A DNA stretch of 64,000 bases from Amphiscolops sp. MND2022. Lineage: Eukaryota. Of the stretch, positions 24,644 through 64,000 are shown in pieces. The notes under the pieces are model-generated. The model was not told where the DNA came from. It saw only the letters and a list, made by a program, of their open reading frames with translations, and ran no database searches. The stretch lies in contig OZ076411.1 in assembly GCA_964187785.1 (NCBI GenBank), forward strand, positions 15,376,001-15,440,000. The letters run 5' to 3'. The translations under genes were made by a program, and so were the position numbers. Each line of letters begins with the position of its first letter. Position 1 is the first letter of the stretch.

Positions 24644-24673
24644 TTGAAGTCGAGGACAATCTTCAGACCATTA

Positions 24674-24912
24674 ATGATCGAACCTAACTCCGCCTATCAG
24701 CTGATACTGGACTCATATAGTCTGGAGAATACCCTGTTCCCCCGCAAAATGCAGGGTAAGCAGCGGACTCAAACTACATGAAGAAACAGTACAAGCTACA
24801 AGGAATAGAATTAAAGCACACAAGTCCCAACCCAAAACTTGACAAGCACACGCGGAGCATTTGGCCCATCGAACCCAAGCTAGAAGCCAAAGACAGTGGT
24901 TTATCTATCTAA
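24674..24912 (+). pseudogene. Small sense accessory ORF of element A (frameshifted)
   Basis: MIEPNSAYQL...YMKKQY...TSPNPKLDKHTRSIWPIEPKLE...SI* is collinear with 60793-61030. Confidence 0.6.
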
Positions 24913-25199
24913 AATATTTATCCTCTTTCATTTAGTATTTCTAACGTGAATAAGTTTTACACTTAAGCATTTTGCATGCTTTTTACGCAACCGCTCGGGC
25001 CGCTCCAATGTAGTTAAACCTCAAAAGCTACTAATCGCGAGTGCAGACTGAAAATTTTCGGTCGGTTAAGAATTTTTTTTAAAATTTCCTTCCAGTTACT
25101 TGTAGGATTAGATTTCACTTCATCTAAGCTTTTAATCTCAACTCTTAGCCCAGACGAGGAAACTCATTGCATATGATGTTTGATAGCTTTTTGTTCAGC

Positions 25200-26630: not shown

Positions 26631-27118
26631 TATCAAAGCAACCCGGAACGACAAGTCGATAATGTTTATGTTGAAACCCAAAATGATGCATTACTCATAT
26701 TCAATTCGACAAAGACGCAGAATACCGTTTTGAACTCAAAAAATCGCTAACGTCGCATTGAATGACACTATAGTTTACAATTAGAAACAATATTGAGGAA
26801 TTAAAATTGTATTGAAAACAGAAAATAGTGAAGAAGAAGCAATATTACAACAAAGCTAACAGACAAATTTTCGACAAAATAAAGAGAACAATCACGTTTT
26901 GAATTGAATTCATACTTTGAGCTTTGTAGACAACTCCAAACTCGCCTCTATACAAATTCGCCCCGACCTTTTCATAATATATAAGGTCTAAAAAATGAAA
27001 AGCTTTTAACCTAGAAGACTGGACGGGCAAGGGCGACTTGCTGAGGCATGATTAGCCCGTACAACACGTATCCTGTTGCTGTCACCATCAAAAAGAACAT
27101 AGAAAAGATCTCGTTGTA

Positions 27119-32384: not shown

Positions 32385-33068
32385 GGTCTCCGAAAAATAA
32401 AAATACCAGCAGTGCCCCGCTAAAATTTAGTCTTAATCTTTTTTATTTTGCTGCCGGAGACTCACAAAAAGATAGTGGCTTGGAAATGGAATTTCTACTT
32501 GACACTGGGGCAACATCTTCAATCATCAACTATAGAACTTTTAGAGAACTTTTCCAATTCCAACAAGACCTCAAACTCAGCAGGAGCAACAACACAACAC
32601 GGAACTACTATGGTCAAATCATCCCTATGATGGGATACATTTCACTACGACTCTACTATGATTCCGACGGCCAACATAACTTCCCTCTGACAGTCTGGAT
32701 CACAGAGATGAAGACACAGAACCTTCTTGGAATGAACTTCTGCCAAGAGCAGATCAACAAAATACATTTCGACCTCCCCGGCATAGAGCTCAAGAGACCT
32801 CTAAATACCTTCTGCTATGGTAGCCTTCAATTAAACAAAGTATACCCCTATGTTTCGCAAATATTAACAGTCAAAATCCCTCACTCCATGTACATTGAAC
32901 TGAAAACAACAAGATGCTACAAATTTGCCTCCGAAAACGCGAATTCCTTTTCTCCCGGATCTACATTCCTTCCAAACAGAAAGGCAGTTTCTACAAGACC
33001 CAACTTCATAAATGTCCTCTGTACACAGTTCGAGAAGACTTTGCCAATTGTCAAGGAAAACAACAAGG
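32372..33068 (+). pseudogene. Gypsy pol fragment (aspartic protease), truncated at the unit junction, copy 1
   Basis: FLLDTGATSSII and LLGMNF motifs; begins at the TTTAAAC slip site. Confidence 0.9.
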
Positions 33069-38152: not shown

Positions 38153-40294
38153 ATGGCTGGCAAAATTACTTGGCTTATCCAGACCTCGGCAGAGACCAAT
38201 TCACAGGAACAGACCCAGATCAAGATCCTGAACAATTTATACAGCTAATTGAAAAGAAGTCCCGATTTTCCCATGGCGATACCCCAGCGAACGGAGCAGC
38301 ACTTGACGACTACAACTTCAAAAGAAAATCCTACTTCACTACACTACTAAGAGGACCCGCAGCGGAGTGGTTCGAGACCAGCATCACAGACGCTAACACT
38401 TGGGCAGAAATCAGAGAAAGGTTCATCACACGTTTCGCAGATGGCAGAAACAAATTGAGGCACAGAATGGAAGCAGAACATGTCACCAGACGAGATGGAG
38501 AAGAGATCAAGAATTTCCTACACAGAATCAAAATTGTTGTGGGGAAAGGCTGGCCAGATGATCTTGCTGGCGTTGCACCAAACGACAGAAATGCAGAAAG
38601 AGCAGCGCAAGACAGACAAAGAAGACAAAGGTGCATCGACTACTCTGTGAGAGGCCTAAGACCTCCAAAGCTGAGAGAAAAGGCACACGAATATCTAATG
38701 GACCACCCGAATGCAACCTGGGAGCTATTCTCACAAGCAGTAATAAACATAGACCTTTCCTACAATGTAACTACCGCCCTAACTGGCGGAGAATCACACG
38801 CAAACCCACTCATACAAGAAATGCGAGACGACCTAAAGGGAATTAAACTACAAATCAAAGAACAGATGAATAACACGATCAACGCAGTAGAGAAAACAGT
38901 AGACCCTAATGCCACAGGACGAAGAATGGCCACACGATTCTGCGGGTACTGCCGAACAAATGGGCACACATCTATCTGGTGCAGAAAGAAGATGAGAGAC
39001 GAAGAAGTCAAGAAGGTTCAAAACGAAACTAACACAGAGAGAAAAATAACGTTCACCAGCGATTACAACAAAAGAACAGGACCTGGACATGGCTCAAGAT
39101 TTCAGCCAAGATTACCCGATTCAGAGATCTGAAAACATATGGCTGTGGCACACCAACTGGCGCTCGCAGGAGCTTTGCAAGCAACCCCCACTTGGGACCG
39201 ATTTGATAAAACACAGAACAGAAACTTTAACTCTGAACGCAGAACTATGAATACGAGGTTTGACTCTTAATAACTCCAGATTTTCACAAGAGGGGAGAAG
39301 ACTTTTTTCCTAAAACCCTAACAATTCTAGGAGTATCTCTCCAGGACCACAGAGAGCAAGGTCTCCATTTGCCCCCAATAGAGGCCAGTCTAGTTCGTTC
39401 AACCGCAACATACAACCCCTTCCACCAAGGAACAACTCAGTTTTTCAGAGACAACAACAAAACAGAAACGAAAGACCCAGCACCCCTACTCAGTCTTACG
39501 AGCAAAGATTTCCAAAGACTAAGGAAATGGGAAGATCCAACACAGTACAATTCTTAGAAACTGACTACTCGGTGAACTCGGTAGCCGACTTTCGTCCTTT
39601 AAACTACTAAGGTCTCCGAAAAATAAAAATACCAGCAGTGCCCCGCTAAAATTTAGTCTTAATCTTTTTTATTTTGCTGCCGGAGACTCACAAAAAGATA
39701 GTGGCTTGGAAATGGAATTTCTACTTGACACTGGGGCAACATCTTCAATCATCAACTATAGAACTTTTAGAGAACTTTTCCAATTCCAACAAGACCTCAA
39801 ACTCAGCAGGAGCAACAACACAACACGGAACTACTATGGTCAAATCATCCCTATGATGGGATACATTTCACTACGACTCTACTATGATTCCGACGGCCAA
39901 CATAACTTCCCTCTGACAGTCTGGATCACAGAGATGAAGACACAGAACCTTCTTGGAATGAACTTCTGCCAAGAGCAGATCAACAAAATACATTTCGACC
40001 TCCCCGGCATAGAGCTCAAGAGACCTCTAAATACCTTCTGCTATGGTAGCCTTCAATTAAACAAAGTATACCCCTATGTTTCGCAAATATTAACAGTCAA
40101 AATCCCTCACTCCATGTACATTGAACTGAAAACAACAAGATGCTACAAATTTGCCTCCGAAAACGCGAATTCCTTTTCTCCCGGATCTACATTCCTTCCA
40201 AACAGAAAGGCAGTTTCTACAAGACCCAACTTCATAAATGTCCTCTGTACACAGTTCGAGAAGACTTTGCCAATTGTCAAGGAAAACAACAAGG
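38153..40294 (+). pseudogene. Gypsy gag plus protease fragment, copy 2
   Basis: As copy 1; slip site at 39598-39604. Confidence 0.9.
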
Positions 40295-43930: not shown

Positions 43931-45679
43931 TGTTTTCTTTCAGAGCTACCTAGAATTTACGAGGTTGACGTTACACGGATTCCCCCTAACTAATAAAATG
44001 ATTTTGTCTTATAAATTTGTTCACCCAAAAGTCTTGATGCTATTCACTTTAAAATTGAAGAGACACGAAAAACCAATGCCTCCGTTTAAAATAGTACGGA
44101 ATTGTAAACTGTATTTTGATAAATCTCCTGAACTGAAAAGAAAGTGCGTTTATTCCATTGACGCTAAATTTCCCTAATATACTGCACTAAATTTAAATAA
44201 GTAAAGTTTTATTACTTCGATGAAAATGAATAAATCTTTTGCTCTGAGGCGACTAGGCGACTGACGAATGTAAAAGTGAAATAAATACTGCTATGCCTAT
44301 AAAATTTTGCTCTGTATTTCTGTCTTGTCGCTTATTGTAATTCAACATATTTTTTCCCATACTTCTCTCCTTTTCAGATAGTTCTTTTACATACACTGCC
44401 TTGCACTCACTCACGCAACTTCCTTTGTCCGCACGTACACGCAAGGCACTTTTCAGGATAACACCGAGTAAGCTATTGAGACTTTCTTACTCATACCTAA
44501 TCAATAAGGGAACGGTCAATAGTAGTATTTTGCAAAATGCCACAGAAGACGAACTGACTATTACTGATAACAAGTGAGCAGTCCCTTGAAATGAGAAAAC
44601 AGGAAAGAGTAAATAGCAAAATTTATCCATGCGTGCGACAAATTGGTGCGACCAGTGAGGCATCTTTCTCTCTTTTAGTAGAGAAGTAATTGAGCTATCT
44701 GTTAGAATCCTTACTCTCAGAAGTTAGGGTTAACAACCTATTTCTCTTGATCTTACTTCTGATTTTCTTTTTTCTCCTACTGCCCCAATATGTGGCTTCT
44801 TTGGTCTATATAAATCATAGAACTGCTAGTAAATACTCCAATAGAATCTCTCCAGCTTAACAGCTTTTGGAAGAGACTGTGCACTACGCAACTTAGTTCT
44901 CTCAATCCCCAAAACGGTTAGAGCTGATTTACTTTTACGGAAATGCTAGACTACATTCGGTCCTAAACGAGAATGAAACTGCTTTCTAACACGGAATTTA
45001 AACTTACAGTTGCGAAAATTCGCTCAAATCCAGACGGACACTTAGAAAAAGCCCGCCTAGGTCTCCTCGGAAGCTGATTGAAGGCCGTGAGCCCAGTGGG
45101 TGTCCTTGAACCTGTGTAGCATTCCAAGGTGGAAACCTAGAATTCCAAGAATTCTAGTGATAGTACCCTAGTGTTTGCATGATAGTGATCTTGGCCCCGC
45201 GCTACTTGATCCTGAGGACGAGAGTGACTCCCTCTGTTTGTTTGTTGTATTACTTTTACAAAACCCATTGAAAGGCTAGACTAGCGAATTGAAGACCTTT
45301 TGGACCGACTGTACTCTCCATATTTTTTCTTTGGGTTAATTCGGAGGATTGGTATTACCCGAACTGCCCTTTCTGTTAATCATTTAAATTTAGCGGGATT
45401 TGTAAGTATCCCCTATTTTTTGGGATTGAAGTATTAAACCCGGAGGACTAACGTCTCCTAAGCTGAGACGTGGGATCTTCAAAAATTTTTTTGCATACTA
45501 CTGAGTCTATGCAAAATCAGACCTGCCTAATTCTTATCATCTTTAGAACTCTTGCAAGAGCGTCTTCTACATTAATCCTTTGTGGTTATTCACAGAGACC
45601 TGGAGTATCCTATCTAATAGAAACTTTAATTTTATTATTCGTTGCTACAATTTTTTTCTAATAATTTCAACAGCTCACA

Positions 45680-47820
45680 ATGGCTGGCAAAATTACTTGG
45701 CTTATCCAGACCTCGGCAGAGACCAATTCACAGGAACAGACCCAGATCAAGATCCTGAACAATTTATACAGCTAATTGAAAAGAAGTCCCGATTTTCCCA
45801 TGGCGATACCCCAGCGAACGGAGCAGCACTTGACGACTACAACTTCGAAAGAAAATCCTACTTCACTACACTACTAAGAGGACCCGCAGCGGAGTGGTTC
45901 GAGACCAGCATCACAGACGCTAACACTTGGGCAGAAATCAGAGAAAGGTTCATCACACGTTTCGCAGATGGCAGAAACAAATTGAGGCACAGAATGGAAG
46001 CAGAACACGCCACCAGACGAGATGGAGAAGAGATCAAGAATTTCCTACACAGAATCAAAATTGTTGTGGGGAAAGGCTGGCCAGATGATCTTGCTGGCGT
46101 TGCACCAAACGACAGAAATGCAGAAAGAGCAGCGCAAGACAGACAAAGAAGACAAAGGTGCATCGACTACTCTGTGAGAGGCCTAAGACCTCCAAAGCTG
46201 AGAGAAAAGGCACACGAATATCTAATGGACCACCCGAATGCAACCTGGGAGCTATTCTCACAAGCAGTAATAAACATAGACCTTTCCTACAATGTAACTA
46301 CCGCCCTAACTGGCGGAGAATCACACGCAGACCCACTCATACAAGAAATGCGAGACGACCTAAAGGGAATTAAACTACAAATCAAAGAACAGATGAATAA
46401 CACGATCAACGCAGTAGAGAAAACAGTAGACCCTAATGCCACAGGACGAAGAATGGCCACACGATTCTGCGGGTACTGCCGAACAAATGGGCACACACCT
46501 ATCTGGTGCAGAAAGAAGATGAGAGACGAAGAAGTCAAGAAGGTTCAAAACGAAACTAACACAGAGAGAAAAATAACGTTCACCAGCGATTACAACAAAA
46601 GAACAGGACCTGGACATGGCTCAAGATTTCAGCCAAGATTACCCGATTCAGAGATCCGAAAACATATGGCTGTGGCACACCAACTGGCGCTCGCAGGAGC
46701 TTTGCAAGCAACCCCCACTTGGGACCGATTTGATAAAACACAGAACAGAAACTTTAACTCTGAACGCAGAACTATGAATACGAGGTTTGACTCTAATAAC
46801 TCCAGATTTTCACAAGAGGGGAGAAGACTTTTTTCCTAAAACCCTAACAATTCTAGGAGTATCTCTCCAGGACCACAGAGAGCAAGGTCTTCATTTGCCC
46901 CCAATAGAGGCCAGTCTAGTTCGTTCAACCGCAACATACAACCCCTTCCACCAAGAAACAACTCAGTTTTTCAGAGACAACAACAAAACAGAAACGAAAG
47001 ACCCAGCACCCCTACTCAGTCTTACGAGCAAAGATTTCCAAAGACTAAGGACATGGGAAGATCCAACACAGTACAATTCTTAGAAACTGACTACTCGGTG
47101 AACTCGGTAGCCGACTTTCGTCCTTTAAACTACTAAGGTCTCCGAAAAATAAAAATACCAGCAGTGCCCCGCTAAAATTTAGTCTTAATCTTTATTATTT
47201 TGCTGCCGGAGACTCACAAAAAGATAGTGGCTTGGAAATGGAATTTCTACTTGACACTGGGGCAACATCTTCAATCATCAACTATAGAACTTTTAGAGAA
47301 CTTTTCCAATTCCAACAAGACCTCGAACTCAGCAGGAGCAACAACACAACACGGAACTACTATGGTCAAATCATCCCTATGATGGGATACATTTCACTAC
47401 GACTCTACTATGATTCCGACGGCCAACATAACTTCCCTCTTACAGTCTGGATCACAGAGATGAAGACACAGAACCTTCTTGGAATGAACTTCTGCCAAGA
47501 GCAGATCAACAAAATACATTTCGACCTCCCCGGCATAGAGCTCAAGAGACCTCTAAATACCTTCTGCTATGGTAGCCTTCAATTAAACAAAGTATACCCC
47601 TATGTTTTGCAAATATTAACAGTCAAAATCCCTCACTCCATGTACATTGCACTGAAAACAACAAGATGCTACAAATTTGCCTCCGAAAACGCGAATTCCT
47701 TCCCTCCCGGATCTACATTCCTTCCAAACAGAAAGGCAGTTTCTACAAGACCCAACTTCATAAATGTCCTCTGTACACAGTTCGAGAAGACTTTGCCAAT
47801 TGTCATGGAAAACAACAAGG
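45680..47820 (+). pseudogene. Gypsy gag plus protease fragment, copy 3 (least decayed gag)
   Basis: CGA instead of the TGA of copies 1 and 2; open to 46839; knuckle CGYCRTNGHTPIWC; slip site at 47124-47130. Confidence 0.9.
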
Positions 47821-48899: not shown

Positions 48900-49142
48900 A
48901 TTGAATTAAGTTTGAATTTAAAACCAAGCCAAGTAATAAGCAAGCAAGGTTACAACAAAGGTAACAGTCAATATTTAGCCAACATAGGATAGAGGATAAA
49001 CTCCCTGTTTCAAAGATATCTTGCTGTGGAAAACCAAGAACATTGAGAGTTAAAACAGAAATTGTTGCATGATGTAAGCTCAAAATGAAAAATAATAATT
49101 ATTAGGAATACTGATAAGGAAAACTAAAACTAACATATTATC

Positions 49143-49400
49143 TTGCTGCTGATTATTCAGCTTTGCCTTCCCTTCCGCCTCGAGGTGAACCTTATCCCGA
49201 CCGAGGACCGACTTGTTACTCAGGAAGCAGGAGACTCCTATATACTTGTAGCCAAATCGACTATCAAGGGCCAGCAAAGAATTTATTTCTCGAATTTGAT
49301 CACAAGTGCCATCATGCCGTGGTGGCACGCCGATAACAACTATACGGCCGGTTGCGTTAGCCATGAGAAAGTTTGCCAAATCAAGTAGCAGACGGTACGC
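49143..49400 (-). pseudogene. SGNH/GDSL esterase-like fragment (as in ORF1 of some LINEs)
   Basis: RIVVIGVPPRHD...IREINSLL...VLGRDKVHL..EGKAKL, with an intact DxxH motif. Confidence 0.7.
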
Positions 49401-49548
49401 CTGGAAACAAATCGTATGATTTTTCAAAAATATTCAATGTATAAATTTCTAGACAGAAAGGTGTCAGAGAAATATTAAGATCAATATGAGGGAAAAAGAA
49501 AATTTACTCACCCGAAACGGCGAACAGTTTGGTCTGATGTCGCGCTAT

Positions 49549-50210
49549 GACTATCGCTCTAACAAATGGTCGAACAGTGCTTTCTTTTATTTAAATAACA
49601 CGTGCTGAAAGAAACAGGAAATGGAACTAACGTTGTGCGTAAGTAGAGGGAGTGGAGGTAATAATAATAAAAATGGCGGCGGCCATAAAGCGGAGACCGC
49701 GAAAAGGAAGGAATAATAATGGAGTACTGCGGGAAAGGAATTGCACAAGTGGAAATTTCTATTACTTACCGCGCAGATTTGAAAAAGAAGCACAGCCACT
49801 TTTGATTGCAAGCAAAACATGCCGGCAAGCAGAAGTGCTCGATTTGACTTTATACCGCGCGCACATGCTGGAGCTTCATCCCGCCGAACGACTGAGCTCA
49901 ACTTAAGCAGAACCTTCTTCCCTCTTCCTCTCTCTCTTCCTCCAATTCTCTTATTCCTATTCCCCCTCTTCTCTCCCTCGACTCTTATTTCCCCCCTTTT
50001 CTCTTTGGCTTATCTTCCCCTTATTTCGTTGCAATTTATCTTAGACTTAAAAAGTCGATCTTCCTATTTCCCCTCTTCTTTCTTTGATTATTATCTTATA
50101 AAATTTTCCTTCCTTCTCAATCCACTTCCCCTTTCTCTCAAGCTCAACTTGTATTAGGGAAATTTCTTCAATCCTACTTTGTCGCCGGTTTCGTGATATT
50201 TTTCTCAGTG
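49549..50210 (+). promoter_or_regulatory. Putative 5' LTR / promoter region
   Basis: Conserved with 22841-23460; YY1-like AAAATGGCGG at 49670-49679; AATAAA at ~49665. TG...CA ends and a PBS were not identified. Confidence 0.45.
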
Positions 50211-50244
50211 GAGATTTTTCATTCTCCCTTTTTCTTTTCTACAT

Positions 50245-50802
50245 TAAATTCTAACTTAGAATATTTTCCGCAGATTTCACTCAGCGGTAATCTTAAATTC
50301 TAACTTAGAATATTTTCCGCAGATTTCACTCAGCGGTAATCTTAAATTCTAACTTAGAATATTTTCCGCAGATTTCACTCAGCCGTTATCTTAAGTTCTA
50401 ACTCAGAATATTTTCCCCAGATTTCACTCAGCGGTTATCTAAAATTCTAACTTAGAATATTTCCCGCAGATTTCACTCAGCGGTTATCTTGAATTCTAAC
50501 TTTTAATAATTTTCCTCAGATTTCACTCGGCGGTTATCTTAAATTCTAACTTAGAATATTTTCCGCAGATATCACTCAGCGGTAATCTTGAATTCTAACG
50601 TAGAATAATTTTCCGCAGATTTCACTCAGCCGTTATCTTAAATTCTACCTTAGAATATTTTCCGCAGATTTCACTCAGCGTTAATATTGAATTCTAACTT
50701 AGAATAATTTTCCGCAGTTTTCACTCATCGGTTATCTTATATTCTAACTTAGAATATTTTCGCAGATTTCACTCATCGGTTATCTGAAGTTTTAACTTAG
50801 AA
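50245..50802. repeat. 49-50 bp tandem array in the element leader, 11 copies
   Basis: Counted directly; each copy carries the inverted repeat TTCTAA-C-TTAGAA. Confidence 0.95.
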
Positions 50803-52481
50803 TGTTTTCTTTCAGAGCTACCTAGAATTTACGAGGTTGACGTTACACGGATTCCCCCTAACTAATAAAATGATTTTGTCTTATAAATTTGTTCACCCAA
50901 AAGTCTTGATGCTATTCACTTTAAAATTGAAGAGACACGAAAAACCAATGCCTCCGTTTAAAATAGTACGGAATTGTAAACTGTATTTTGATAAATCTCC
51001 TGAACTGAAAAGAAAGTGCGTTTATTCCATTGACGCTAAATTTCCCTAATATACTGCACTAAATTTAAATAAGTAAAGTTTTAATACTTCGATGAAAATG
51101 AATAAATCTTTTGCTCTGAGGCGACTGACGAATGTAAAAGTGAAATAAATACTGCTATGCCTATAAAATTTTGCTCTGTATTTCTGTCTTGTCGCTTATT
51201 GTAATTCAACATATTTTTTCCCATACTTCTCTCCTTTTCAGATAGTTCTTTTACATACACTGCCTTGCACTCACTCACGCAACTTCCTTTGTCCGCACGT
51301 ACACGCAAGGCACTTCTTTTCAGGATAACACCGAGTAAGCTATTGAGACTTTCTTACTCATACCTAATCAATAAGGGAACGGTCAATAGTAGTATTTTGC
51401 AAAATGCCACAGAAGACGAACTGACTATTACTGATAACAAGTGAGCAGTCCCTTGAAATGAGAAAACAGGAAAGAGTAAATAGCAAAATTTATCCATGCG
51501 TGCGACAAATTGGTGCGACCAGTGAGGCATCTTTCTCTCTTTTAGTAGAGAAGTAATTGAGCTATCTGTTAGAATCCTTACTCTCAGAAGTTAGGGTTAA
51601 AAACCTATTTCTCTTGATCTTACTTCTGATTTTCTTTTTTCTCCTACTGCCCCAATATGTGGCTTCTTTGGTCTATATAAATCATAGAACTGCTAGTAAA
51701 TACTCCAATAGAATCTCTCCAGCTTAACAGCTTTTGGAAGAGACTGTGCACTACGCAACTTAGTCCTCTCAATCCCCAAAACGGTTAGAGCTGATTTACT
51801 TTTACGGAAATGCTAGACTACATTCGGTCCTAAACGAGAATGAAACTGCTTTCTAACACGGAATTTAAACTTACAGTTGCGAAAATTCGCTCAAATCCAG
51901 ACGGACACTAAGAAAAAGCCCGCCTAGGTCTCCTCGGAAGCTGATTGAAGGCCGTGAGCCCAGTGGGTGTCCTTGAACCTGTGTAGCATTCCAAGGTGGA
52001 AACCTAGAATTCTAAGAATTCTGGTGATAGTACACTAGTGTTTGCATGCTAGTGATCTTGGCCCCGCGCTACTTGATCCTGAGGACGAGAGTGACTCCCT
52101 CTGTTTGTTTGTTGTATTACTTTTACAAAACCCATTGAAAGGCTAGACTAGCGAATTGAAGACCTTTTGGACCGACTGTACTCTCCATATTTTTTTCTTT
52201 GGGTTAATTCGGAGGATTGGTATACCCCGAACTGCCCTTTCTGTTAATCATTTAAATTTAGCGGGATTTGTAAGTATCCCCTATTTTTTGGGATTGAAGT
52301 ATTAAACCCGGAGGACTAACGTCTCCTAAGCTGAGAGGTGGGATCTTCAAAATTTTTTTTGCATACTACTGAGTATATGCAAAATCAGACCTGCCTAATT
52401 CTTATCTTTAGAACTCTTGCAAGAGCGTCTTCTACCTTAATCCTTTGTGGTTATTCACAGAGACCTGGAGTATCCTACCTA

Positions 52482-53273
52482 CTCACTCATACAAGAAATG
52501 CGAGACGACCTAAAGGGAATTAAACTACAAATCAAAGAACAGATGAATAACACGATCAACGCAGTAGAGAAAACAGTAGACCCTAATGCCACAGGACGAA
52601 GAATGGCCACACGATTCTGCGGGTACTGCCGAACATATGGGCACACACCTAACTGGTGCAGAAAGAAGATGAGAGACGAAGAAGTCAAGAAGGTTCAAAA
52701 CGAAACTAACACAGAGAGAAAAATCGTTCACCAGCGATTACAACAAAAGAACAGGACCTGGACATGGCTCGAAATTTCAGCCAAGATTACCCGATTCAGA
52801 GATCCGAAAACATATGGCTGTGGCACACCAACTGGCGCTCGCAGGAGCTTTGCAAGCAACCCCCACTTGGAACCGATTTGATAGAACACAGAACAGAAAC
52901 TTTAACTCTGAACGCAGAACTATGAATACGAGGTTTGACTCCAGATTTTCACAAGAGGGGGGAAGACTTTTTTCCTAAAACCCTAACAATTCTAGGAGTA
53001 TCTCTCCAAGACCACAGAGAGCAAGGTCTCCATTTGCCCCCAATAGAGGCAAGTCTAGTTCGTTCAACCGCAACATACAACCTCTTCCACCAAGGAACAA
53101 CTCAGTTTTTCAGAGACAACAACAAAACAAACGAAAGACCCAGCACCCCTACTCAGTCTTACGAGCAAAGATTTCCAAAGACTAAGGACATGGGAAGATC
53201 CAACACAGTACAATTCTTAGAAACTGACTACTCGGTGAACTCGGTAGCCGACTTTCGTCCTTTAAACTACTAA
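52482..53273 (+). pseudogene. gag remnant of element B (N-terminal ~700 bp deleted)
   Basis: tatcctacc joins directly to actcactcatacaagaaatg; knuckle CGYCRTYGHTPNWC; ends RPLNY*. Confidence 0.88.
53261..53267 (+). promoter_or_regulatory. -1 programmed ribosomal frameshift slippery site T TTA AAC
   Basis: In gag phase two codons before the gag stop. The -1 frame is open for 36 codons into LEMEFLLDTG. The same geometry occurs at 32372, 39598 and 47124. Confidence 0.85.
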
Positions 53274-54073
53274 GGTCTCCGAAAAATAAAAATACCAGCA
53301 GTGCCCCGCTAAAATTTAGTCTCAATCTTCATTATTTTGCTGCCGGAGACTCACAAAAAGATAGTGGCTTGGAAATGGAATTTCTACTTGACACTGGGGC
53401 AACATCTTCAATCATCAACTATAGAACTTTTAGAGAACTTTTCCAATTCCAACAAGACCTCGAACTCAGCAGGAGCAACAACACAACACGGAACTACTAT
53501 GGTCAAATCATCCCTATGATGGGATACATTTCACTACGACTCTACTATGATTCCGACGGCCAACATAACTTCCCTCTGACAGTCTGGATCACAGAGATGA
53601 AGACACAGAACCTTCTTGGAATGAACTTCTGCCAAGAGCAGATCAACAAAATACATTTCGACCTCCCCGGCATAGAGCTCAAGAGACCTCTAAATACCTT
53701 CTGCTATGGTAGCCTTCAATTAAACAAAGTATACCCCTATGTTTTGCAAATATTAACAGTCAAAATCCCTCACTCCATGTACATTGCACTGAAAACAAGA
53801 AGATGCTACAAATTTGCCTCCGAAAACGCGAATTCTTTCCCTCCCGGATCTACATTCCTTCCAAACAGAAAGGCAGTTTCTACAAGACCCAACTTCATAA
53901 ATGTCCTCTGTACACAGTTCGAGAAGACTTTGCCAATTGTCATGGAAAACAACAAGAACCATACAATCACACTAGTAAAAGGAACAATTGGATACTCCAT
54001 GTTAGACATCATTGACAAAGAAATCCCAAAGTATCAGATTAGGAATCCTACCGAACTCGCTTACACCATTTGA
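53261..54073 (+). pseudogene. pol: aspartic protease plus downstream beta-rich region
   Basis: LLDTGA catalytic motif; ORF track 53369-54073. Confidence 0.92.
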
Positions 54074-54133
54074 AGCGAAAATGAAGAATACAATGATTGC
54101 TTCTTAGTACACTCCACTATCCCTTCACAAGAT

Positions 54134-54579
54134 ATGAACGATTGCATCAGAATAGAGGAAAGAAATTCTACAACAATACTCAGCAGACCAGACTCTATCA
54201 TCATCTTTGTCCCGGCTGATCTCAAGCCAGCCAAAGGCTTCTCTAAAGAAATTTTAACGAACATACCTTCATTAAAGACTCTTGCGCAAAACAGAAACCA
54301 CAAAAAGGCGATACTATACCCTACTGGGATATGACTCTAAAGCGATTTATATACGTCCTAATCACTAAAGCTAAATCGAAAGACAAAGTTGACCCACAAA
54401 TCTTAGTCCAATCGCTGGAGGCACTAAAAGCACGCGCCAAAATGAGTAGTATCAAGACTGTTTCTATGTCACGAGAAGCCTCGGAACTAGAAGCTTCCAA
54501 TGGCAAGATGTTACACAAATTATTCAAGACGTTTTTGCCTCAGAAATACAACTCCGAATTTATAAAAGAAACGAACTAG
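54134..54579 (+). pseudogene. pol: TARG1/OARD1 (Poa1p)-like macrodomain
   Basis: SIIIFVPADLKPAKGFSKEI, then a frameshift near 54305, then GDTIPYWDMTLKRFIYVLITK...LVQSLEALK...VSMSR. This parallels OARD1 SLAHCISEDCRMGAGIA / RYIYYLITK / LQKSLEAMK / LSMPR. Confidence 0.75.
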
Positions 54580-54889
54580 ATGTTTATGCCATGACTACCA
54601 GAGGAGACCCCGAATCTTCATTAGAAGCGAAATACAACAATTCTCAGAAGAATTTCACTTGAAGCACAGAGAACTGGAAACTGACTCTACTAAAGACGCA
54701 AAGTCCTGTCAACCACCTTGTGACGAACAATTCAAGATATTTATGCCCAAGGAAGACAACGAATCAGAAAGAGACTGATTGAATACTATCTTCAATACCA
54801 GAACAAAGAAGCAGTTCAATACATCACAGAATTCGACTTTCGCTACTCGGACCTAACAGACGAAGAACTTGTTCTTCTAATAGGCCTAC

Positions 54890-55849
54890 TAATGGATGCT
54901 AGAGATGTATACTCACAACACAAGTTCGACGTTGGGAAAACTAGACAGAAATTCAACATTAAACTGGCACACGAAGCAATTCTGAAGAGACAGAGACCTA
55001 GCAAAGTACCACTGCAGTTACGGGAGAAGTTAGAAAAGCTACTAACACAACTCAAAGAGGCTGACATCATAAGAGATGGGCGATGACGACGAAATGGGAT
55101 CCTTATTCGTGAACCCCATCATCCTACAACCAAAACATGACTACGTCAAGCTGATAATAGACGCAAGATACCTGAATTCAGTGACGGATCTAACAAACTA
55201 CCCCTGGCCCTTGGAACCGATACAAACCATAATGACTCTCATCAATGGAAAAATCTCAGTAAGTGATCTCTCTTGCGCTTTTCACCAAGTCCCACTAGAC
55301 GAGCCCACACAGAAACTCACTAGCTTCATAATTGGCGACAAACAATACACATTCACCAGAGGATTCTACGGACTTAAAGGATTACACAGCTTCTTCAGCC
55401 GTATGATGACAATTCATTTCGAACCCCTCATCAAGAAGAAACAAGCAATTACCTACATAGACGACACGTTAATGGAGGCCAAAAACAAACAAGAAATGTT
55501 CACAGTGATCCAAGAATACCATGACCTACTACGGAAAGCAGGACTCAAGGCAGCGCATGACAAAACACTATTCTTCTTGAGAAAAGTTATGTTCCTGGGA
55601 CATGAGATTGCAGCAGAAGGAATACAACCCGTAGCTAAACGAGTCAGGAATCTTCACAATCTCAAATCGCCAAAAACGAGAACTGAGGTAAAAAGCTTCC
55701 TAGGGGCTCTGGGATTTTATAGCTGTCACATCAAGAATCTGCATGTCGATAGCAGACCATTCTACGAGCAGACCCAGAAAGTTACAAACTTTTGTTGGAA
55801 ACAAGAACATGAAGACCTCTTCCAAGAAATAAACTTGAGAATAAGCTAA
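54890..55849 (+). pseudogene. pol: reverse transcriptase
   Basis: LIIDARYLN, SDLSCAFHQ, YTFTRGFYGL, YIDD, FLGH; frameshift near 55080. Confidence 0.95.
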
Positions 55850-56255
55850 GACACAGTCCTTGCCGTACCCTCAACAAAGTACCCCTTTCACATACACGTG
55901 GACTCATCTAACGTAGGAACCGGATGTATCCTAATACAAAAATTCCCCGAAGGAAAACGGATTATTTTCTTCAATTCGCGAGTTTTTGCAAAAGAAGAAC
56001 AAAAGATGTCCACTCTACATAGAGAACTATGTGGCATAGTCTCAGCTCTTCAAACGTATGAGCACTAAATCATCGGATCGCTTTTCCCTATTTACGTATA
56101 CTGTGACCATAAACCCGTTCTATATCTCTGGGGACGAAAGGGACAAGTTTCCCCACGCTTCTTTAGGTACAAAGTGATCATTTCCAAGTTCCCCAATCTA
56201 AAGATAAAATGGACGCCGGGAAGCAACTTAGCCTTCCTTGATATACTCAGCCGAA
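55850..56255 (+). pseudogene. pol: RNase H
   Basis: HVDSSNVGTG, HRELCGIV, YCDHKP and LDILSR; in-frame stop near 56066. Confidence 0.92.
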
Positions 56256-57099
56256 ATGTCTCAATCGAAGAACACAAGAAACATCAACTTAGCCACAAAA
56301 TCTTACCCAACGACATACACTTCTTCGATGAGCATGGGACTCAAGTTCACTACAAAATCAAACACGAGGAAAACGATGAGACATCAAAGAATGACTTCTA
56401 CCCTATATTGTACGAGAAGGGGGAAGAACGGAAAATCCTTCACCTACAAATTGACGGTAATAATTTCACAGTCAACAATATCTGCGAGGAACCTAACCTG
56501 CCGAAGATAGAATCGGCACAAAGTTGTTTTGACGCCGGAAAAGAAATTGGTAAATACGAAGAGCTACGAATCAGATTGGGCACGCGAGAAAGTACTTCCG
56601 ATATATCACAAAATACTTACAGCTCTGTCAACAGCGACGCAGACGATGAAGCTCCCACAAATGATGAACTTCAAGAAGTGAACGAAACAAATTACGAGGT
56701 GAATCCGAGTTCCCCGGCACTCAAACAATGTATCTCCGAAAACGATAAGGCAACAGGAAATCACGAGCTCCCTAAAACCACAATGAGAAAACAAAAAACA
56801 TCAGCACGAGAACTCATAGGCCAACTTGATAAGATATCCAAAGAAGCAGAGCTAAATGTCACCACAATTTTACAAGAACAAATTAACGACCCAGTCCTTA
56901 GAGTTGTTCGACAATGGATAAAGACAGGAAACAAGCCTACGCCAAAGTCACCAGAGTTACAACACTCGAAAGGCCTCATGCGCTACTTTCAGGAGTTCGA
57001 CAGACTAACCATAGAAGAACAAGGAAACCTCCTCTGTTACAACGAGCCAACTGACGACCCGGCAGACGTAAATCTGAGAATCTGCCTACCTCTCTATTT

Positions 57100-58660
57100 C
57101 TAGCTTGCTTCTGCATGGGACATTACAATGACTTGGGCGGCCACATGGGAGCTGAGAAAACCTACCTAAATGCTAGAAGATTTTACTACTGACCCGGAAT
57201 GCACGACTGGATCTGTGCCCTCACACAAGATTGTGTTAGCTGCCAATCTAACAAATCCAAACAACGAAGAAATAACTAAGTCCCACTGGAAGACTGTGAA
57301 ACTGAGACCCAAGTATTCAGAACGGTTTATATCGATCACAAGGGACCGTTCAACCCTCTCAGTCGTGGAAATTCACATTGCCTCCTCATCATTGACGCCT
57401 TCTCACGCTACTTGATGGCATACCCGGTTAGAGACACAGGAGCACAATCAACAATCAACGCAATGGAAAAATGGATTATGCACTATGGGATACGGCAATC
57501 TATCATACATGATAGAGGAACAGCCTTTGTAAACACTGAATTCGTTAATTGGACGAAAGAGTTTGGCATTACTCTTCGACCAAGAACTGCACACTCACCC
57601 TGGACAAATGGCAAAGTCGAAACCCAAAATCACATTGCAAGATACTGGAGAAACTTCTTAAGCGAATCAGGAAACAACTGGGCCCAACTAGCTGCTAAAA
57701 TTGCATTTGCCCTCAACACAAGCGTCAACTACACAACAGGAAAGACCCCCTACGAAATATTGTTCTGCAACAAACCACAAATACCAATGAGTCCTAAGCT
57801 AGGACTCTATAGGAATAAAAACAAAAACTGCAGATCACAATTCTGTAACGGATTACCTCCCCATCGATATAGCGAAAACCAAGTCAAAAACAGACTACTA
57901 AATGGACTATTAAGACCACAACTATCACAAAGCTTGCTGGACCGAGAAACCGCCTTCAAAAAGATCTACTCATCCACATACGAAGAGTGCAGAAAACAAA
58001 CAGCTCGATCACACGCCTACAGAAACAGATTTAAACTCGGAAACCACCTCAACATAGGACAAAAGGTTCTGCTAGAAAACCATCGAAAAGACCTGTCCAA
58101 AAGCCAAAAACTTCAACAACTGCGATTGGGACCCTTTACGGTTACCAAGAGAATTACAAATACAGCCTACCAAATAACAGAAGATCAAAATCCCGAGAAT
58201 CTCCAAACTGTGCATAGGACTCATCTTATAGAATACTTTCCTAAAGAGGAAACACTCCCCCCTCTTATCGAAGAATACACAACTCCCCACCGTGGAGACA
58301 CGAATTTTTATAGCAGTTTTGTCAAGGGAAGAATTGAAAAGCTTAATGTTTCAGAACCACAAACGCTCAGGGATCTCTGCGTATTGCCAATTCGGAACCA
58401 ACGCGATCAAATACTTGCCGACAAAATAACGCAAACCCCCAGAGCACAGATTCTGATATCATCTCTCCAGAAAATCAGTTGTTGACAACCCCAAAGACTC
58501 CCGATCAGCCTTCGACCTCACATCCTCGAGACACCGCAACCCCTATCCTGACGTTGACAGAACGTCAACCGACTCCAGCACCCCCAACTAACACCCCAGC
58601 ATCTTCATCCAAATCACCAACTCTCTTGCAAGAGTCCAGAAGAGCTCTTGTCCGCCACAC
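57100..58660 (+). pseudogene. pol: integrase (HHCC zinc finger, DDE core, C-terminal extension)
   Basis: HYNDLGGH...CVSC; IDHKGP, IHDRGT and NGKVE; several frameshifts. Confidence 0.93.
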
Positions 58661-59372
58661 ACCGCCTTCAAAAAAATTTACTCATCCACATACGAAGAGT
58701 GCAGAAAACAAACAGCTCGATCACACGCCTACAGAAACAGATTTAAACTCGGAAACCACCTCAACATAGGACAAAAGGTTCTGCTAGAAAACCATCGAAA
58801 AGACCTGTCCAAAAGCCAAAAACTTCAACAACTGCGATTGGGACCCTTTACGGTTACCAAGAGAATTACAAATACAACCTACCAAATAACAGAAGATCAA
58901 AATCCCGAGAATCTGCGAACTGTGCATAGGAATCATCTTATAGAATACTTTCCTAAAGAGGAAACACTACCCCCTCTTATCGAAGAATACACAACTCCCC
59001 ACAGTGGAGACACGAATTTTTATAGCAGTTTTGTCAAGGGAAGAATTGAAAAGCTTAATGTTTCAGAACCACAAACGCTCGGGGATCTCTGCATATTGCC
59101 AATTCGGAACCAACGCGATCAAATACTTGCCGGCAAAATAACGCAAACCCCCCAGAGCACAGATTCTAATATCATCTCTCCAGAAAATCAGTTGTTGACA
59201 ACCCCAAAGACTCCCGATCAGCCTTCGACCTCACATCCTCGAGACACCGCAACCCCTATCATGACGTTGACACAACGTCAACCGACTCCAGCACCCCCAA
59301 CTAACACCCCAGCATCTTCATCCAAATCACCAACTCCCTTGCAAGAGTCAAGAAGAGCTGTTGCCCGCCACA
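57949..59372 (+). repeat. 712-bp tandem duplication of the integrase 3' region
   Basis: 57949-58660 is repeated at 58661-59372 with a few substitutions. Confidence 0.93.
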
Positions 59373-60018
59373 TAGAAAGAAATCCGCGCTATCAACGCGG
59401 ACAGCCCAATCAACCAGCACAACAATCCATACTTCGCCAAAAGGACTCGAATTGGTTACAAAGAATATTCTTATCATGCCATGCCATAAAGTCTATCTAA
59501 ATTTGCCTTGGCAAGTTCCGCGTGAACTTCAGTCCTTAGGCATTTTTCAAGTAACATTTACAAAAGTCTACTGGACCTACATAAACAAGATAGTTAGAAT
59601 TTGCTTCTACTCCGAAGACCCAGACCCTAGCCATCATAAACAACCTACGCCCCGCAAATCAAACCTACCTATGTGCCCGGAATCCAAGACCTTATCTATA
59701 TCAACACCTAGCATACTACGCAGTCACACACCACGACCCTATCGTAGAAGAACTCCTATCCTACATGCCTACCCTAATACCTGACCTACAACCTTCCCCG
59801 CCTAATACTAAAAAGGACCTATTCTGCTGCTCTACTATCTCCTCACCAAGCTCCAGCCGGCGAATTTAACCTATTAGAAAAGTATAACCAATATAGTTAT
59901 TTGCTTATATTTATCGATATTCTTTGTGCAATCCCGAAAACAGCATTACTCAAAAGGCCACAGAGACAAGAAGCGTATAAAATTGGCAGTATTGGAGGTG
60001 GAGTAGCCCAAAACGGGC

Positions 60019-60553
60019 CTACTCCACGACGAGAAACCCGCCGCTCTCCGCTAACATACGGAGCTGCTCTCGACGGGCTTCGGGGGTCCAATAACGATAG
60101 AGCCGCTCCCACTGCAATCTTTGAAACATCGTCAGCCTGGACCACCCGCTGATGTAGGCGGACAGCCTAAAGAGGTGTTCCTCCGCTGACGAAGACAAAA
60201 GCACTTCCTCCCATTGATGCCCTATCTCCACATCCAGGAAATCTGCAAAATGAAGTAGCACTGGCGCATGAGGCACCACGAAACCTTTAGTGCCGTGCAA
60301 TACTCGGGTACTCATGACCCACGCCTCAAGTATTTCCAAATCGTTCCGGTTGTATATACCCCGAAACGATTCTAACAATGGCGACCCCTCGCTATCTGAG
60401 GAAGGTGCGGGAGACACCGTCCGCCTTTCAGGCAAAACTACCCCGACCGGCAATGAAGTATCCGGCCTACTGGGTCCCGCAACCGGCTCCCGCTCCTGGC
60501 TCGGTTCATGAAATTCTTCCACCAGACCCTCTCCTCCTGAATGCAAGTACTCA

Positions 60554-60594
<41 letters not shown>

Positions 60595-60711
60595 AGACTC
60601 TTCATAAAAGTCGTCGCCTTCAGAAATTGCAATGGCGACCCCCTCTTCTATTTGGCCCTCCAAAAGGACTTCTTCCAGGACGACTTCCCGTTCTTCTTGT
60701 TCTCGGCTCAT
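60019..60711 (-). CDS. Intact antisense accessory ORF, 230 aa (acidic/Ser-rich N-terminus, helical C-terminal domain)
   Basis: ATG start and open frame. Protein-level conservation with element A shows mainly synonymous changes and the same terminal LVVE*. Confidence 0.82.
60554..60592. repeat. (GAC)13 microsatellite encoding poly-Ser in the antisense ORF
   Basis: Counted directly; not expanded in element A. Confidence 0.95.
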
Positions 60712-60792
60712 CTTTTGATCCTCCTACAAGAAAACTAGATTAGACGCAATATAAATGACTTCTCACGGCCGAGGACAATCCTCAGACCTATC

Positions 60793-61030
60793 ATGTTACA
60801 ACCTAATACTTCTTATCAGCTGACCCTGACCCCACCTAGCCCGCAGAAACCCCTATCTCCCCCGCATGATGCAGAGAAAACAGGCTACATGACGAATCAG
60901 TATCAGCAGCTAAGAATCGAATATACGCCTACCAGTCCCTACCCAAAGTCTGACAAGCACACGCGGAGCATTTAGCCCATCAAACCCCAGGCTAGAACCA
61001 GTAGACATAGTGCAGTATATCTCTATCTAA
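60793..61030 (+). pseudogene. Small sense accessory ORF (~78 aa; premature TAG and frameshift)
   Basis: MLQPNTSYQL...YMTNQY...TSPYPKSDKHTRSI*PI; the TAG is TGG in element A. Confidence 0.6.
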
Positions 61031-61247
61031 ATCTGTTTATCCTATTTAATGTAACCTAACTAAATTAATACATTTAAGATTTCGTTTTTCTTACTCTCTA
61101 CTCTCTCCGCCTGGGCCGCTCCAAGGTAATTAAACCTCAAAAGCTACCCATTGGGAGTGCAAAGTCAAAAAAATTTCGATTCCCAAAAGCAATGAAATAA
61201 CTGATGATTCCATTCTCAGTTTTGCTATGATATATGAATGCCAGTGA

Positions 61248-62150
61248 TTGACTCCACACCACCCACAGATGATCATAATCTTCAAAATCGACGACCGTCT
61301 TTCACAAATCACAGATATCCAGAAGGAACCCTCAACGCGGAACATCATCATTCAAGCCTACGCACTTGTAGAAGAAAGTGAAACCTACACGTGCGTGCCG
61401 GAATCTCCCATCTACCCGTTACTGGAGAGCTTGCTATATAATAACACACCTACAGAAGTCTTCACAAAAGCCAAGTCAGTCATTTAATGTCCTCTCCCGC
61501 AGTTGCCGTCTTCCGCGGAAATAAGTACCACTTCCACACACTTTTTCAACCTCCTGTTCCTTGGACCCCATACAACTCAAGGGTCAATACGAAATACAGT
61601 CAATCTTCTACGAGATCACTACCTCTGCGATTCAAGTTCGCATACTCACACCAGAAGACAAAGAAGCTCTAGTCCTGTTCCCAATTCACTTCGGGTCCAA
61701 GGAATACGCCTACTTATTCCTTTCGTTCAGGCAATACATACTCCAACACCCGGCCGTCCTCAAAGACAAGGCTTTCGACGACTTGGTTTATTTTATGGAC
61801 ATCACTCTCACCTCCAACCCCTTCGAAGAAGTTCGAATCAAATACCTTCACAGGCTGGTCGAAACTTACGATGTTTAAAATTCAACTAAAGTTTCTCTGG
61901 CGACACCCGGAAACTAACACTCTTCTTGAAATCCTTTCCATTGCCTGGAGAGACCGCTCCTTCTAAACAAATAGAAATCCATAGCCTGCGACCTCACCAG
62001 CCTGGACATTGGCTTGTCCCAATCGATCTTGAGTCACAAGAAGCTGCAGATCTAGCACACGCATTGAAAGAGTATCGCCAAATTGCATACCTCGATCACA
62101 TCCACCCTCTCACACTCTTCCTTGTCAGCAAACTCTTTTTGGACACGTGA
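61248..62150 (+). pseudogene. Further sense accessory ORF(s) between integrase and env
   Basis: Abutting ORFs 61248-61487, 61561-61878 and 61926-62150 have globular-protein composition. No family recognised. Confidence 0.5.
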
Positions 62151-62258
62151 AGACGAAACAAGCCCTCTCCCAGCCTCCAATCAGTCCGCAACAACTACGA
62201 CTAAACCTCTAAACCTTCAAAAATTGGTTGAAGTTAGTCTCTCTCACATCTCTATTCA

Positions 62259-62694
62259 GGCACTTTTTAACAGTAGTGAGGTTACTACTATAAAATTTTT
62301 ATCTCCGCTTAGTGTTGTGCCAGCTAAGCTGCCGGTTTGATGTTATGGCTTGCCTTTTCTACGGCCTTACCACGGATCCTCAGCTCTACTCAAACAATAC
62401 GAAACTACAAAACCTATACCATTCTTAGGCACGTTTTAACAGTAGTGAGGTTACTATAAAATTTTAACCTCCGCCTAGTGCAGTGCCCACTAAGCTGCCG
62501 GTTTGATATTACGGCTTGCCTTTTTACGGCCTTACAACGGATCCTCGAATATAGAACATAAAGGAAATAAAATAACTAAAATATTTTTCGGCACGTTTCA
62601 ACAGTAGTGAGGTTACTACTATAAAATTTTAACCTCCGCTTAGTGCAGTGCCCACTAAGCTGCCGGTTTGATATTACGGCTTGCCTTTTTACGG
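62259..62694 (+). repeat. Three ~105-123 bp direct repeats separated by 46- and 43-bp non-repeated spacers
   Basis: Copies 62259-62381, 62428-62546 and 62590-62694, each with several internal stems. Confidence 0.9.
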
Positions 62695-62699
62695 TCTCT

Positions 62700-64000
62700 A
62701 CTAAACACACACTCGTTTCAATGCAATGTGGCACCAGAAAACTTAGAAGTCGTGCGAGCGTAACTTTATACACTAAACACTTTCGCCGCACTATAAACGC
62801 CACTATGTGCTGTGTGAAACACCAGAGTGAAGAATGGCATTGTGGTCATCACGATCATTCCAGTATGTCAATCCTACACAACGGAATCACTAGCGATCTC
62901 TCCCTGTCACCCGATGGTTCTCCCCTGCCCTCTGGAACAACTTGGCTGCGAAACAACGTCATTGGACCCGTACGCCTATACATGGGCAGAGCCAGATAAC
63001 TGCGTGCTCGCAGTACACAGGAAAGAAATAGTGAATATGATCAAACACGGCTCTAACTACTATATAGTTAGCGGCAACGACTCCACTACAAAGTTCCTTT
63101 TCGAAATATACAAAAGGCCACAGAAATACTGCAACAAACCCGATGATGTATACCCTACCAATTACGAATCCCTCTACGTTTCGGTCCAATTTGGTGGTTT
63201 CGACATGACATCTGGTAGACGATTAGGCATATCCATGGGAGAAACCTCCAAACTTCAAAATTACTCACCTGACGATGGTTCTGGTAATGGCCGACTCCAC
63301 CTCTTCAGAGGACCTAGCGACTCCAACCCTAATACACCACATTATCTCAACATGGATTACGAGCTCCACCGAGGAACAAAGTTAGATTATCTCTTCTTTG
63401 AGAGCACCCGCTTACTCGAAGCTTCAGAAATCCAGCTACTGAAAGCTCAATGTGAACAAGAACGAACACAAATCCTCACTATCTTGATGTTATCCATGGA
63501 AAACCCACGACTCACCGGATACCTGCTCACGGGAAATCGCTCAATGTTCCTGAATACAGATGGTAGCCTAGCATGGCTCTACCACTGCCCGGAATCCCAC
63601 TCACCTCTTCACACGATGAACCAATCCTACGACCGCATACCCATCTTCTACAAAGTGGTTGCCTTCGTGGACCACATCACCCGACAGACTTATCCTAATG
63701 CGAACGTGCAAAATTGCAGCGATCGCATTAAGAACCTCTTCCAACTGGACATGGAAGACTAAGACTCCTGGTTTACCCCTACTCCTTCACCCGAACATCG
63801 CGACCGACCTGCTATCTTCGGACCGAAGGACATCCAACCAATGATCACCAGATCCTTTCCTGGATCACAAGACGCAGGAATGTACACGCCGAAACAACTC
63901 TCGGAATTTTGGGATAACATCCTCATCAGCGCAGCTTCAAGAAATGCCCTCCAGAAATTTTCACGAGAGCTCATCATACCTTCGATGGTCCATAGCGGAC
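62700..64000 (+). pseudogene. env: Cys-rich class III (herpes gB / chuvirus G-like) fusion glycoprotein, truncated by the window end
   Basis: QCNVAPENLEV..VTLYTKHFRRTINATMC..WHCG; CEQERTQILTILMLSMENPRLTGYLLTG; LYHCP..YDRIPI; GMYTPKQL. Frameshifts and an in-frame TAA at 63760. Confidence 0.7.

Follow-up and report, generated by a model that had tools for sequence, protein, structure and literature searches.

Human TARG1 (OARD1, C6orf130; PDB 4J5Q, 4J5R and 4J5S) is a stand-alone macrodomain protein of the ALC1-like class, with a minimal macro fold. Its catalytic pair consists of Lys84 and Asp125, as described in part of PMC8120803; the corresponding passage of PMC7050489 prints the second residue of the pair as 'Glu125', where the PDB chain has Asp. 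The substrates given in that passage of PMC7050489 are MARylated proteins and ADP-ribose at nucleic-acid termini. Within this class, DarG has just the lysine of this pair, and SCO6735 has no member of it; the two are hydrolases all the same, according to sections of PMC7050489 and PMC8120803. The laboratory mutant TARG1-G123E, described in part of PMC5928194, has lost ADP-ribose binding and catalysis, is inactive on automodified ARTD10 and is not stabilised by ADP-ribose; it is more stable than the wild type, and its RNA binding lies in the wild-type range. The same sections report that Glu at the Gly43 position likewise kills binding, and the authors place the RNA binding of TARG1 on basic surface patches.

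Macrodomains are also found inside the polyproteins of RNA viruses, such as alphavirus nsP3 and coronavirus Mac1. An anti-PARP role is established for these alphavirus and coronavirus macrodomains, not for those of retroelements, and Poa1p-like macrodomains are annotated in databases for the Pol proteins of other animal Gypsy elements. Many viral genomes contain TARG1-like genes, few of which have the full set of catalytic residues (part of PMC4245714), and macro domain proteins are encoded now and then by epsilon-like endogenous retroviruses of ray-finned fish (a section of the review PMC4977317, citing Basta et al. 2009). Those fish elements, compared here via that section of the review, share with the locus described below the acquisition of a macrodomain by an LTR retroelement; they are Retroviridae with additional ORFs, whereas here the domain lies in frame between the protease and the reverse transcriptase (RT) of a Ty3/Gypsy-type Pol. 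Looking up terms in PMC6338049, PMC13524379 and PMC8672886 gave no relevant mention of macrodomains in the portions covered, and the portion of bioRxiv 2021.11.30.470311 covered deals with Chromo/PHD fusions. In our literature searches (the best 20-30 of 68-1,620 records in the broad ones, with few subscription papers), we found neither a macrodomain between the protease and RT of a Gypsy element nor a natural lineage of the G123E type. The presence of a macrodomain in a retroelement has precedents in itself; what these searches did not return is the position within a Gypsy Pol and the altered lineage.

The locus belongs to a stretch of 64,000 nucleotides from Amphiscolops sp. MND2022, which was analysed as a whole and is called here the window. 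A Ty3/Gypsy-type gag-pol runs in it from about 52.4 kb to 59.5 kb, in the order gag, protease, RT, RNase H and integrase, with the following features:

52441 to 53273, plus strand: gag remnant, from self-alignment; about 713 bp of the 5' part of gag are missing relative to the upstream copies.
53366 to 53635, plus strand: aspartic protease with LLDTGA (Pfam PF13975, gag-asp_proteas, E=5.7e-6; PF13650, E=9.3e-5).
53690 to 54133, plus strand: conserved segment of about 145 residues between protease and macrodomain, recognised from relatives, with an in-frame stop at 54071-54073.
54134 to about 54575, plus strand: the whole macrodomain, between the protease and RT of the decayed Pol.
54134 to 54277, plus strand: N-terminal piece of the macrodomain, with the first strand and helix (25.0 bits against the profile of relatives; 88% identity over P0002 1-255).
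54268 to 54492, plus strand: middle piece of the macrodomain, in a second frame (TARG1 in the PDB at E=0.024; 64.8 bits; 83-88% identity to P0001/P0002).
54495 to 54575, plus strand: C-terminal helix and strand of the macrodomain, FQWQDV...LRIYKRN (54495-54572), in a third frame (30.5 bits; 89-91% identity to P0001/P0002).
54576 to 55849, plus strand: linker and RT with YIDD, broken over several frames (Pfam RVT_1, E=2.1e-15; tblastn with P0002).
55850 to 56200, plus strand: RNase H, interrupted by a stop (Pfam RT_RNaseH_2, E=1.2e-16).
57110 to 59500, plus strand: integrase, core and SH3-like C-terminus (Pfam rve, 1.9e-12; SH3_Tf2-1; Integrase_p58_C).

The first-pass annotation had set the macrodomain between protease and RT, and the Pfam matches to gag-asp_proteas upstream and RVT_1 downstream bear this out. 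It had also allowed for a single frameshift and taken the domain to 54579, and on both points it needs correction: alignment to open relatives shows that the frame shifts twice within the domain, around 54270-54280 and around 54493, so that the domain is spread over three frames; the last helix and strand were missed, and the tail of the ORF, up to 54579, is not in the frame of the domain. The rest of the element is also decayed, with tblastn of P0002 giving nine aligned pieces (some overlapping) and seven stop symbols, and with the 3' part of the integrase duplicated (57949-58659 and 58661-59372, 97% identical by self-BLAST). The window copy of the macrodomain is a dead pseudogene. No pair of terminal repeats (LTRs) was found in 49000-64000, and the element may extend past the window on its 3' side. 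The segment of about 145 residues preceding the macrodomain is 53-64% identical to that of motif-intact relatives and 92% identical between P0001 and P0002; it has no Pfam, Atlas or PDB match, and AF2 models it at a pLDDT of 41. The idea of a dUTPase-like remnant for this segment found no support, there being no dUTPase among the PDB matches of a profile spanning it.

Several further observations concern the surroundings of the element. Upstream of it, tandem segmental repeats of about 7.2-7.5 kb with 99% identity occupy 26154-48899, being either a recent duplication or an assembly artefact. Each of them carries a gag-protease copy (30878-33067, about 38100-40293 and about 45400-47819), and a gag copy at 30878-31906 matches Retrotrans_gag in Pfam at 1.5e-5. 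These copies break off at an identical base ahead of the macrodomain, where unrelated sequence takes over; since all three upstream gag-protease copies stop before it, the window holds one macrodomain copy. A segment of 2.2 kb at 22840-25054 is 65-74% identical to 49548-50366, 5' of gag, and then to 59923-61170, 3' of the integrase. It is a relative of the element that underwent an internal deletion, or else a repeat of greater age that is interrupted by the element. Two tandem arrays were seen, one upstream of gag (50189-50809, 12 copies of a unit of about 49 bp) and one upstream of an envelope-like ORF (62258-62697, 3 copies of a unit of about 165 bp). The envelope-like piece itself (62818-63762, plus strand) matches Pfam Monjiviricetes_fusion at E=3.6e-6, just under the cut-off, and may be the env of the macrodomain element family or that of a neighbouring copy. 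Between integrase and this piece lie ORFs at 60019-60723 (minus strand), 61488-61889 (plus) and 61525-61878 (plus), which have no credible Pfam or NCBIfam match and are possible accessory genes; the one on the minus strand is acidic and contains a run of serines. At 25460-28547, both strands carry broken ORFs that resemble remnants of another mobile element, one of them with a weak Poxvirus 2L_N match (E=0.013); judged by eye, 27103-27987 may be helicase-like. Compact host genes occupy 14088-22496, among them a SAM50/Omp85-like one (16196-17080, E=4.5e-34), a mitochondrial L21-like one (17707-18516) and one with an Nse2-type zinc finger (21603-22496). A near-perfect palindrome of 167 bp, 93% self-complementary, lies at 285-451.

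The TARG1/OARD1-like macrodomain in this Pol is real. As a control for chance, all 1601 stop-to-stop pieces of at least 25 aa in the six frames of the window were scored with a profile built from 120 natural relatives. The three macrodomain pieces ranked first to third (64.8, 30.5 and 25.0 bits); no other piece exceeded 6.8 bits, and when each macrodomain piece was shuffled 1000 times, the highest scores were 8.8, 7.9 and 5.0 bits. The middle frame-piece alone matches only TARG1 chains in the PDB (five of five matches), weakly, at E=0.024. Pfam Macro (PF01661) returns no match for the three window pieces, for whole P0001-P0003 or for the domain of P0001 alone, and NCBIfam nothing for the middle piece or for P0005. 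The Pfam matches of the window pieces to KH_GLD-3_4th (0.002) and Phage_GPD (0.018) are below cut-off, unrelated and taken as chance.

With the middle piece as query, three long relatives were found among 95 candidates: P0001, an open Pol of 1388 aa from a cluster of 108 member sequences; P0002, an open Pol of 1750 aa (36 member sequences); and the shorter P0003. The window pieces are 83-91% identical to P0001 and P0002, piece by piece. In the unbroken P0001, residues 255-405 align with TARG1 along a stretch of about 118 residues (E=2e-11); as a query against proteins of 763-2429 aa, this region returned only P0001 and P0002.

The fold was modelled with AF2 on the domain of P0001, which is 85-89% identical to the window pieces, from an alignment of 56 rows dominated by motif-intact sisters, and the model reached a pLDDT of 89.8. 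In Foldseek, TARG1 entries take ranks 1-8 (E 3e-11, TM 0.81-0.85), followed by DarG, and in VIA, TARG1 comes first with a Z of 21.2, an rmsd of 1.7 Å and 140 aligned residues at 24% identity, ahead of DarG (18.0), Poa1p (16.0), ALC1 (13.6) and the alphavirus macrodomains (about 13). With both lists led by macrodomains, the domain of P0001 is a member of the macrodomain fold and of the TARG1-like class. The label 'Poa1p-like' in the first-pass annotation holds as far as the class goes, but 'TARG1-like' is more exact, since TARG1 comes first by sequence and by structure (VIA Z). As for the claim of a captured TARG1-like macrodomain in Pol, sequence, profile and fold all speak for it, and the absence of any profile or structure match, which that annotation had named as decisive against it, is not what was found: the family profile matches TARG1 at E=5e-30, and the P0001 model superposes on it with a Z of 21.

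It could be argued that the likeness to TARG1 is a product of chance, or that the ASELE loop of the window is nothing but the decay of a dead copy; the silence of Pfam Macro on the window pieces and P0001-P0003 and the weak PDB match of the window piece (E=0.024) would fit this. This explanation is refuted by the E-values of P0001 (2e-11) and of the family profile (5e-30), by the Z of 21, by the control for chance described above, and by the occurrence of ASELE in P0001-P0004, which include open Pols of 1388 and 1750 aa.

Beyond these close relatives, a search of 50%-identity representatives gave 16 matches, including element fragments with an intact GCGLD loop. A profile built from 11 representatives, mostly motif-intact, retrieved 204 longer proteins, all from ENA, in clusters of up to 854 member sequences, and the best 120 of the 204 were scored, with TARG1 numbering of the sites read from alignments to TARG1. 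Among these 120, many of them decayed copies, the residues kept are His32 in 114, Cys33 in 118, Ser35 in 115, Asp37 in 118, Gly43 in 108, Lys84 in 113, Gly121 in 113, Gly123 in 112 and Asp125 in 112. Asp37, Gly43, Lys84, Gly121, Gly123 and Asp125 are all kept in 85 of the 120, which does not give the frequency of intact versus altered elements, because the query was mostly motif-intact and 84 matches lie outside the 120. A protease motif upstream is present in 47 of the 120, YIDD downstream in 26, and both in 6; the full-length P0028 reads protease, unassigned segment, Macro, RT, RNase H and integrase. Pfam Macro scores above its cut-off in four of the eight sisters scanned (P0080, P0084, P0089 and P0129); its E-value is 1.2e-4 in P0080, and P0023 has a match at 2e-4. 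As a lead only, the ESM Atlas has Macro clusters at 0.91-0.92 for part of a protein. Two further proteins deserve mention: P0017 has 340 aa and two tandem TARG1-like domains, with Asn at the Asp125 position in the first, and the divergent P0019, 28% identical to P0001, reads QCVPAN and SRSAKSPD (the latter may be off-frame) and is possibly another altered lineage.

Compared with human TARG1, these sisters keep Lys84, as the window's lineage does, and also HCIS.D, GCGLD and Asp125; they read MSKGFA where human TARG1 reads MGAGIA, even when intact. Unlike the stand-alone human protein, the domain is here embedded in a retrotransposon Pol. DarG, yeast Poa1p and the TARG1-like proteins of phages belong to the same class, the NCBIfam DarG model giving matches of 2e-7 and 5e-11 in intact sisters, which fall well short of its cut-off, and 13 phage records matching P0015 at 29-39%; however, they are more distant than TARG1, and the window element has no DarT or toxin context. 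Invertebrate RNA-virus TARG1-like domains also match the P0001 model, such as Kadipiro virus VP8 (30% identity, E 1e-10), while the alphavirus and coronavirus macrodomains are more distant, with a Z of about 13. As to the donor of the capture, intact sisters are 29-39% identical to phage proteins in local alignments and 22-31% identical to P0017, values that do not discriminate.

According to the explanation that we propose, a TARG1-type macrodomain of the ALC1 class would have been captured into Pol, between protease and RT, by the ancestor of the family. In the motif-intact sisters, the domain would be produced as part of Pol and packaged with it; the protease would then release it, or it would stay attached to RT as an N-terminal extension. 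Its Lys84/Asp125 pair may remove ADP-ribose from the proteins of the element, or from genomic RNA or cDNA at their phosphorylated termini, and by doing so counter the marks set by host PARPs. The substrate range of TARG1 makes erasure plausible on Pol products and on genomic RNA or cDNA ends. MARylation has been linked to retrotransposon silencing in the case of SIRT6/KAP1 and L1 (part of PMC4695847); no such link for LTR elements was found in the literature searches. The first-pass suggestion of an eraser shielding the element is in keeping with these motif-intact subfamilies, but probably does not extend to the lineage of the window, which carries Glu at the Gly123-equivalent.

In this lineage both pocket loops are changed with respect to human TARG1. 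By motif alignment, the window reads IIFVPAD at 54200-54220, where TARG1 has AHCISED, followed by KPAKGFS as loop 1 at 54224-54244, with the Gly43-equivalent kept. LITK at 54358-54369 aligns with the LITK of TARG1, the Lys84-equivalent being encoded at 54367-54369, and SMSREASELE, in the place of the diphosphate loop at 54463-54492, aligns with SMPRIGCGLD, so that the window copy has Glu at the Gly123-equivalent (54484-54486) and at the Asp125-equivalent (54490-54492). The retained lysine, the replacement of GCGLD by ASELE and the Glu at the position of Asp125 had all been read correctly from the window alone. The loop is ASELE in P0001, P0002, P0003 and P0004, the first two being open Pols, and P0001-P0003 share LREASELE together with IFVPAD/E; P0005 has LKNGQDLE and IFVPAD. 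ASELE is therefore an inherited subfamily trait and not decay, because it is common to P0001-P0003 and a related loop is present in the distant P0005.

Across the lineage, His32, Cys33 and Ser35 have become Ile, Phe and Pro, so that only Asp37 is kept of His32-Cys33-x-Ser35-x-Asp37, and the further changes are Pro118 to Leu/Ser, Gly121 to Ala, Gly123 to Glu and Asp125 to Glu. P0005 has Gly at Gly121, Asp at Gly123, Glu at Asp125 and Glu at the Gly43 position. Asp125 is thus absent, with Glu in its place in the window, P0001-P0003 and P0005, a conservative change; the catalytic Lys84 is kept in all of these, and Asp37 and Gly43 also in P0001/P0002. The retention of Lys84 by itself does not show activity, and we do not file this lineage among active TARG1 hydrolases because Asp125, the Gly121/Gly123 loop and the His32-Cys33-x-Ser35-x-Asp37 strand are all altered in it. 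The laboratory mutant G123E has Glu at the aligned position; here the change arose in nature, became fixed in one subfamily and stands beside many others, and its effect in this setting is a predicted one.

The ADP-ribose pocket would be closed in the window's lineage chiefly by the Glu at the Gly123 position, joined by the changes of His32/Cys33/Ser35 to Ile/Phe/Pro, of Pro118 to Leu/Ser, of Gly121 to Ala and of Asp125 to Glu, and the domain would no longer act as an eraser or a reader. A different view is that it still does, through a remodelled pocket with a shifted substrate (DNA- or RNA-linked, in the manner of DarG), perhaps within a conflict with the host. This would agree with the retention of the Lys84, Asp37 and Gly43 equivalents and of an acidic residue at 125, with the new residues being common to the distant P0005, and with the fact that ALC1-class hydrolases work without the full dyad. 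We hold it to be rather unlikely, given that Glu, or Asp in P0005, occupies Gly123, where a single change kills binding in TARG1, that both pocket loops changed together, and that P0005 also has Glu at the Gly43 position. The repurposed inactive fold, offered as the second option by the first-pass annotation, is for the window's lineage the better supported one.

The altered state is old and derived. It is old because P0005, 47% identical to P0001 and sharing its IFVPAD, has 22 of its changes: of the 94 columns that reach 80% conservation among the intact members, P0001 has a different residue at 55, and at 22 of these P0005 has the same new residue. It is derived because the motif-intact state is the one that matches TARG1 and P0017. 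In the macrodomain tree, P0005 groups with P0001-P0003 apart from all the intact members, with a bootstrap of 100 on the dividing branch (the trees being unrooted, of 27 chosen proteins out of 139, family members only, with P0005 and P0015 left out of the flank tree). Between P0001 and P0002, identity is 90% in the macrodomain, 92% in the protease and 77% in the linker after RNase H. Between P0001 and the intact P0028, the macrodomain is 36% identical versus 62-64% in the flanking segments, the values for the two intact clades P0028 and P0120 being 47% versus 51-56%.

These figures suggest, by sequence comparison, a faster change of the domain on the altered lineage. Relative-rate tests with domain 2 of P0017 as outgroup gave 31 versus 9 (p=0.0007) and 30 versus 9 (p=0.001), with p of 0.0002-0.009 over five comparisons. 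With domain 1 as outgroup, the results were not significant (p of 0.18-0.86), as in 21 versus 13 (p=0.23), 19 versus 12 (p=0.28) and 16 versus 14 (p=0.86). When P0120 was used as the third taxon, the excess in the macrodomain was weak (p=0.03 and 0.31) and that in RT similar (p=0.01 and 0.35). On the stem of the altered lineage, the ratio of macrodomain to flank is about 4 in the trees, and one intact clade, whose stem is short, has a value of about 4 as well. Acceleration is no more than suggested, because one outgroup is non-significant and the branch-length ratio is not unique to this stem. As far as the sequences tell, the pattern is that of an old pocket lost and a new state then retained.

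What the domain may have been retained for can be viewed in two ways. After the loss of activity, it may be a passenger without a ligand of its own, conserved only for folding, spacing or cleavage sites in Pol. Core residues can indeed be held by folding constraint alone, the pI is unremarkable, and the 90% identity between the closely related P0001 and P0002 is a short-range measure. However, a useless insert of 146 residues could be deleted, yet P0001 and P0002 have all 146 aa of it, just as the intact members do, and some of the 22 derived residues that P0001 and P0005 have in common, at 47% identity, occupy surface loops, for which reasons we regard a mere passenger as improbable, if worth keeping in mind. 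In the alternative that we prefer, the altered domain would persist next to RT as a basic module that still folds but has no enzymatic role; its most likely task would be to bind RNA or cDNA, irrespective of sequence, by patches on its surface, in the way that TARG1-G123E still binds RNA. The pI is 8.7-9.2 in the altered lineage versus 7.9-9.1 in intact members, and since charge does not single out the altered lineage, nucleic-acid binding is proposed by analogy only. On balance, we are modestly inclined to the view that an ancestral Pol-borne eraser turned, in the lineage of the window, into a pocket-dead, fold-conserved, non-enzymatic module, most likely nucleic-acid-binding. The wider statement, namely that this Gypsy family would erase host ADP-ribose marks and that one old sub-lineage would have made the enzyme the nucleic-acid-binding module of its RT by a G123E-type change, is offered as a tentative possibility.

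Captures of this kind may be under-counted, because the domain does not reach the Pfam threshold in the altered lineage or in several of the sisters. Viruses and their hosts are known to contend over ADP-ribosylation, and an apparently intact TARG1-type domain in Pol gives a direct handle on whether this modification restrains LTR retrotransposons; if the explanation proposed here is true, it would point to PARPs restricting such retrotransposons in a host of invertebrate type. The lineage of the window, which fixed the change that in TARG1 abolishes ADP-ribose binding, would then represent a natural experiment separating an ADP-ribose function of the domain from an RNA-binding or structural one.
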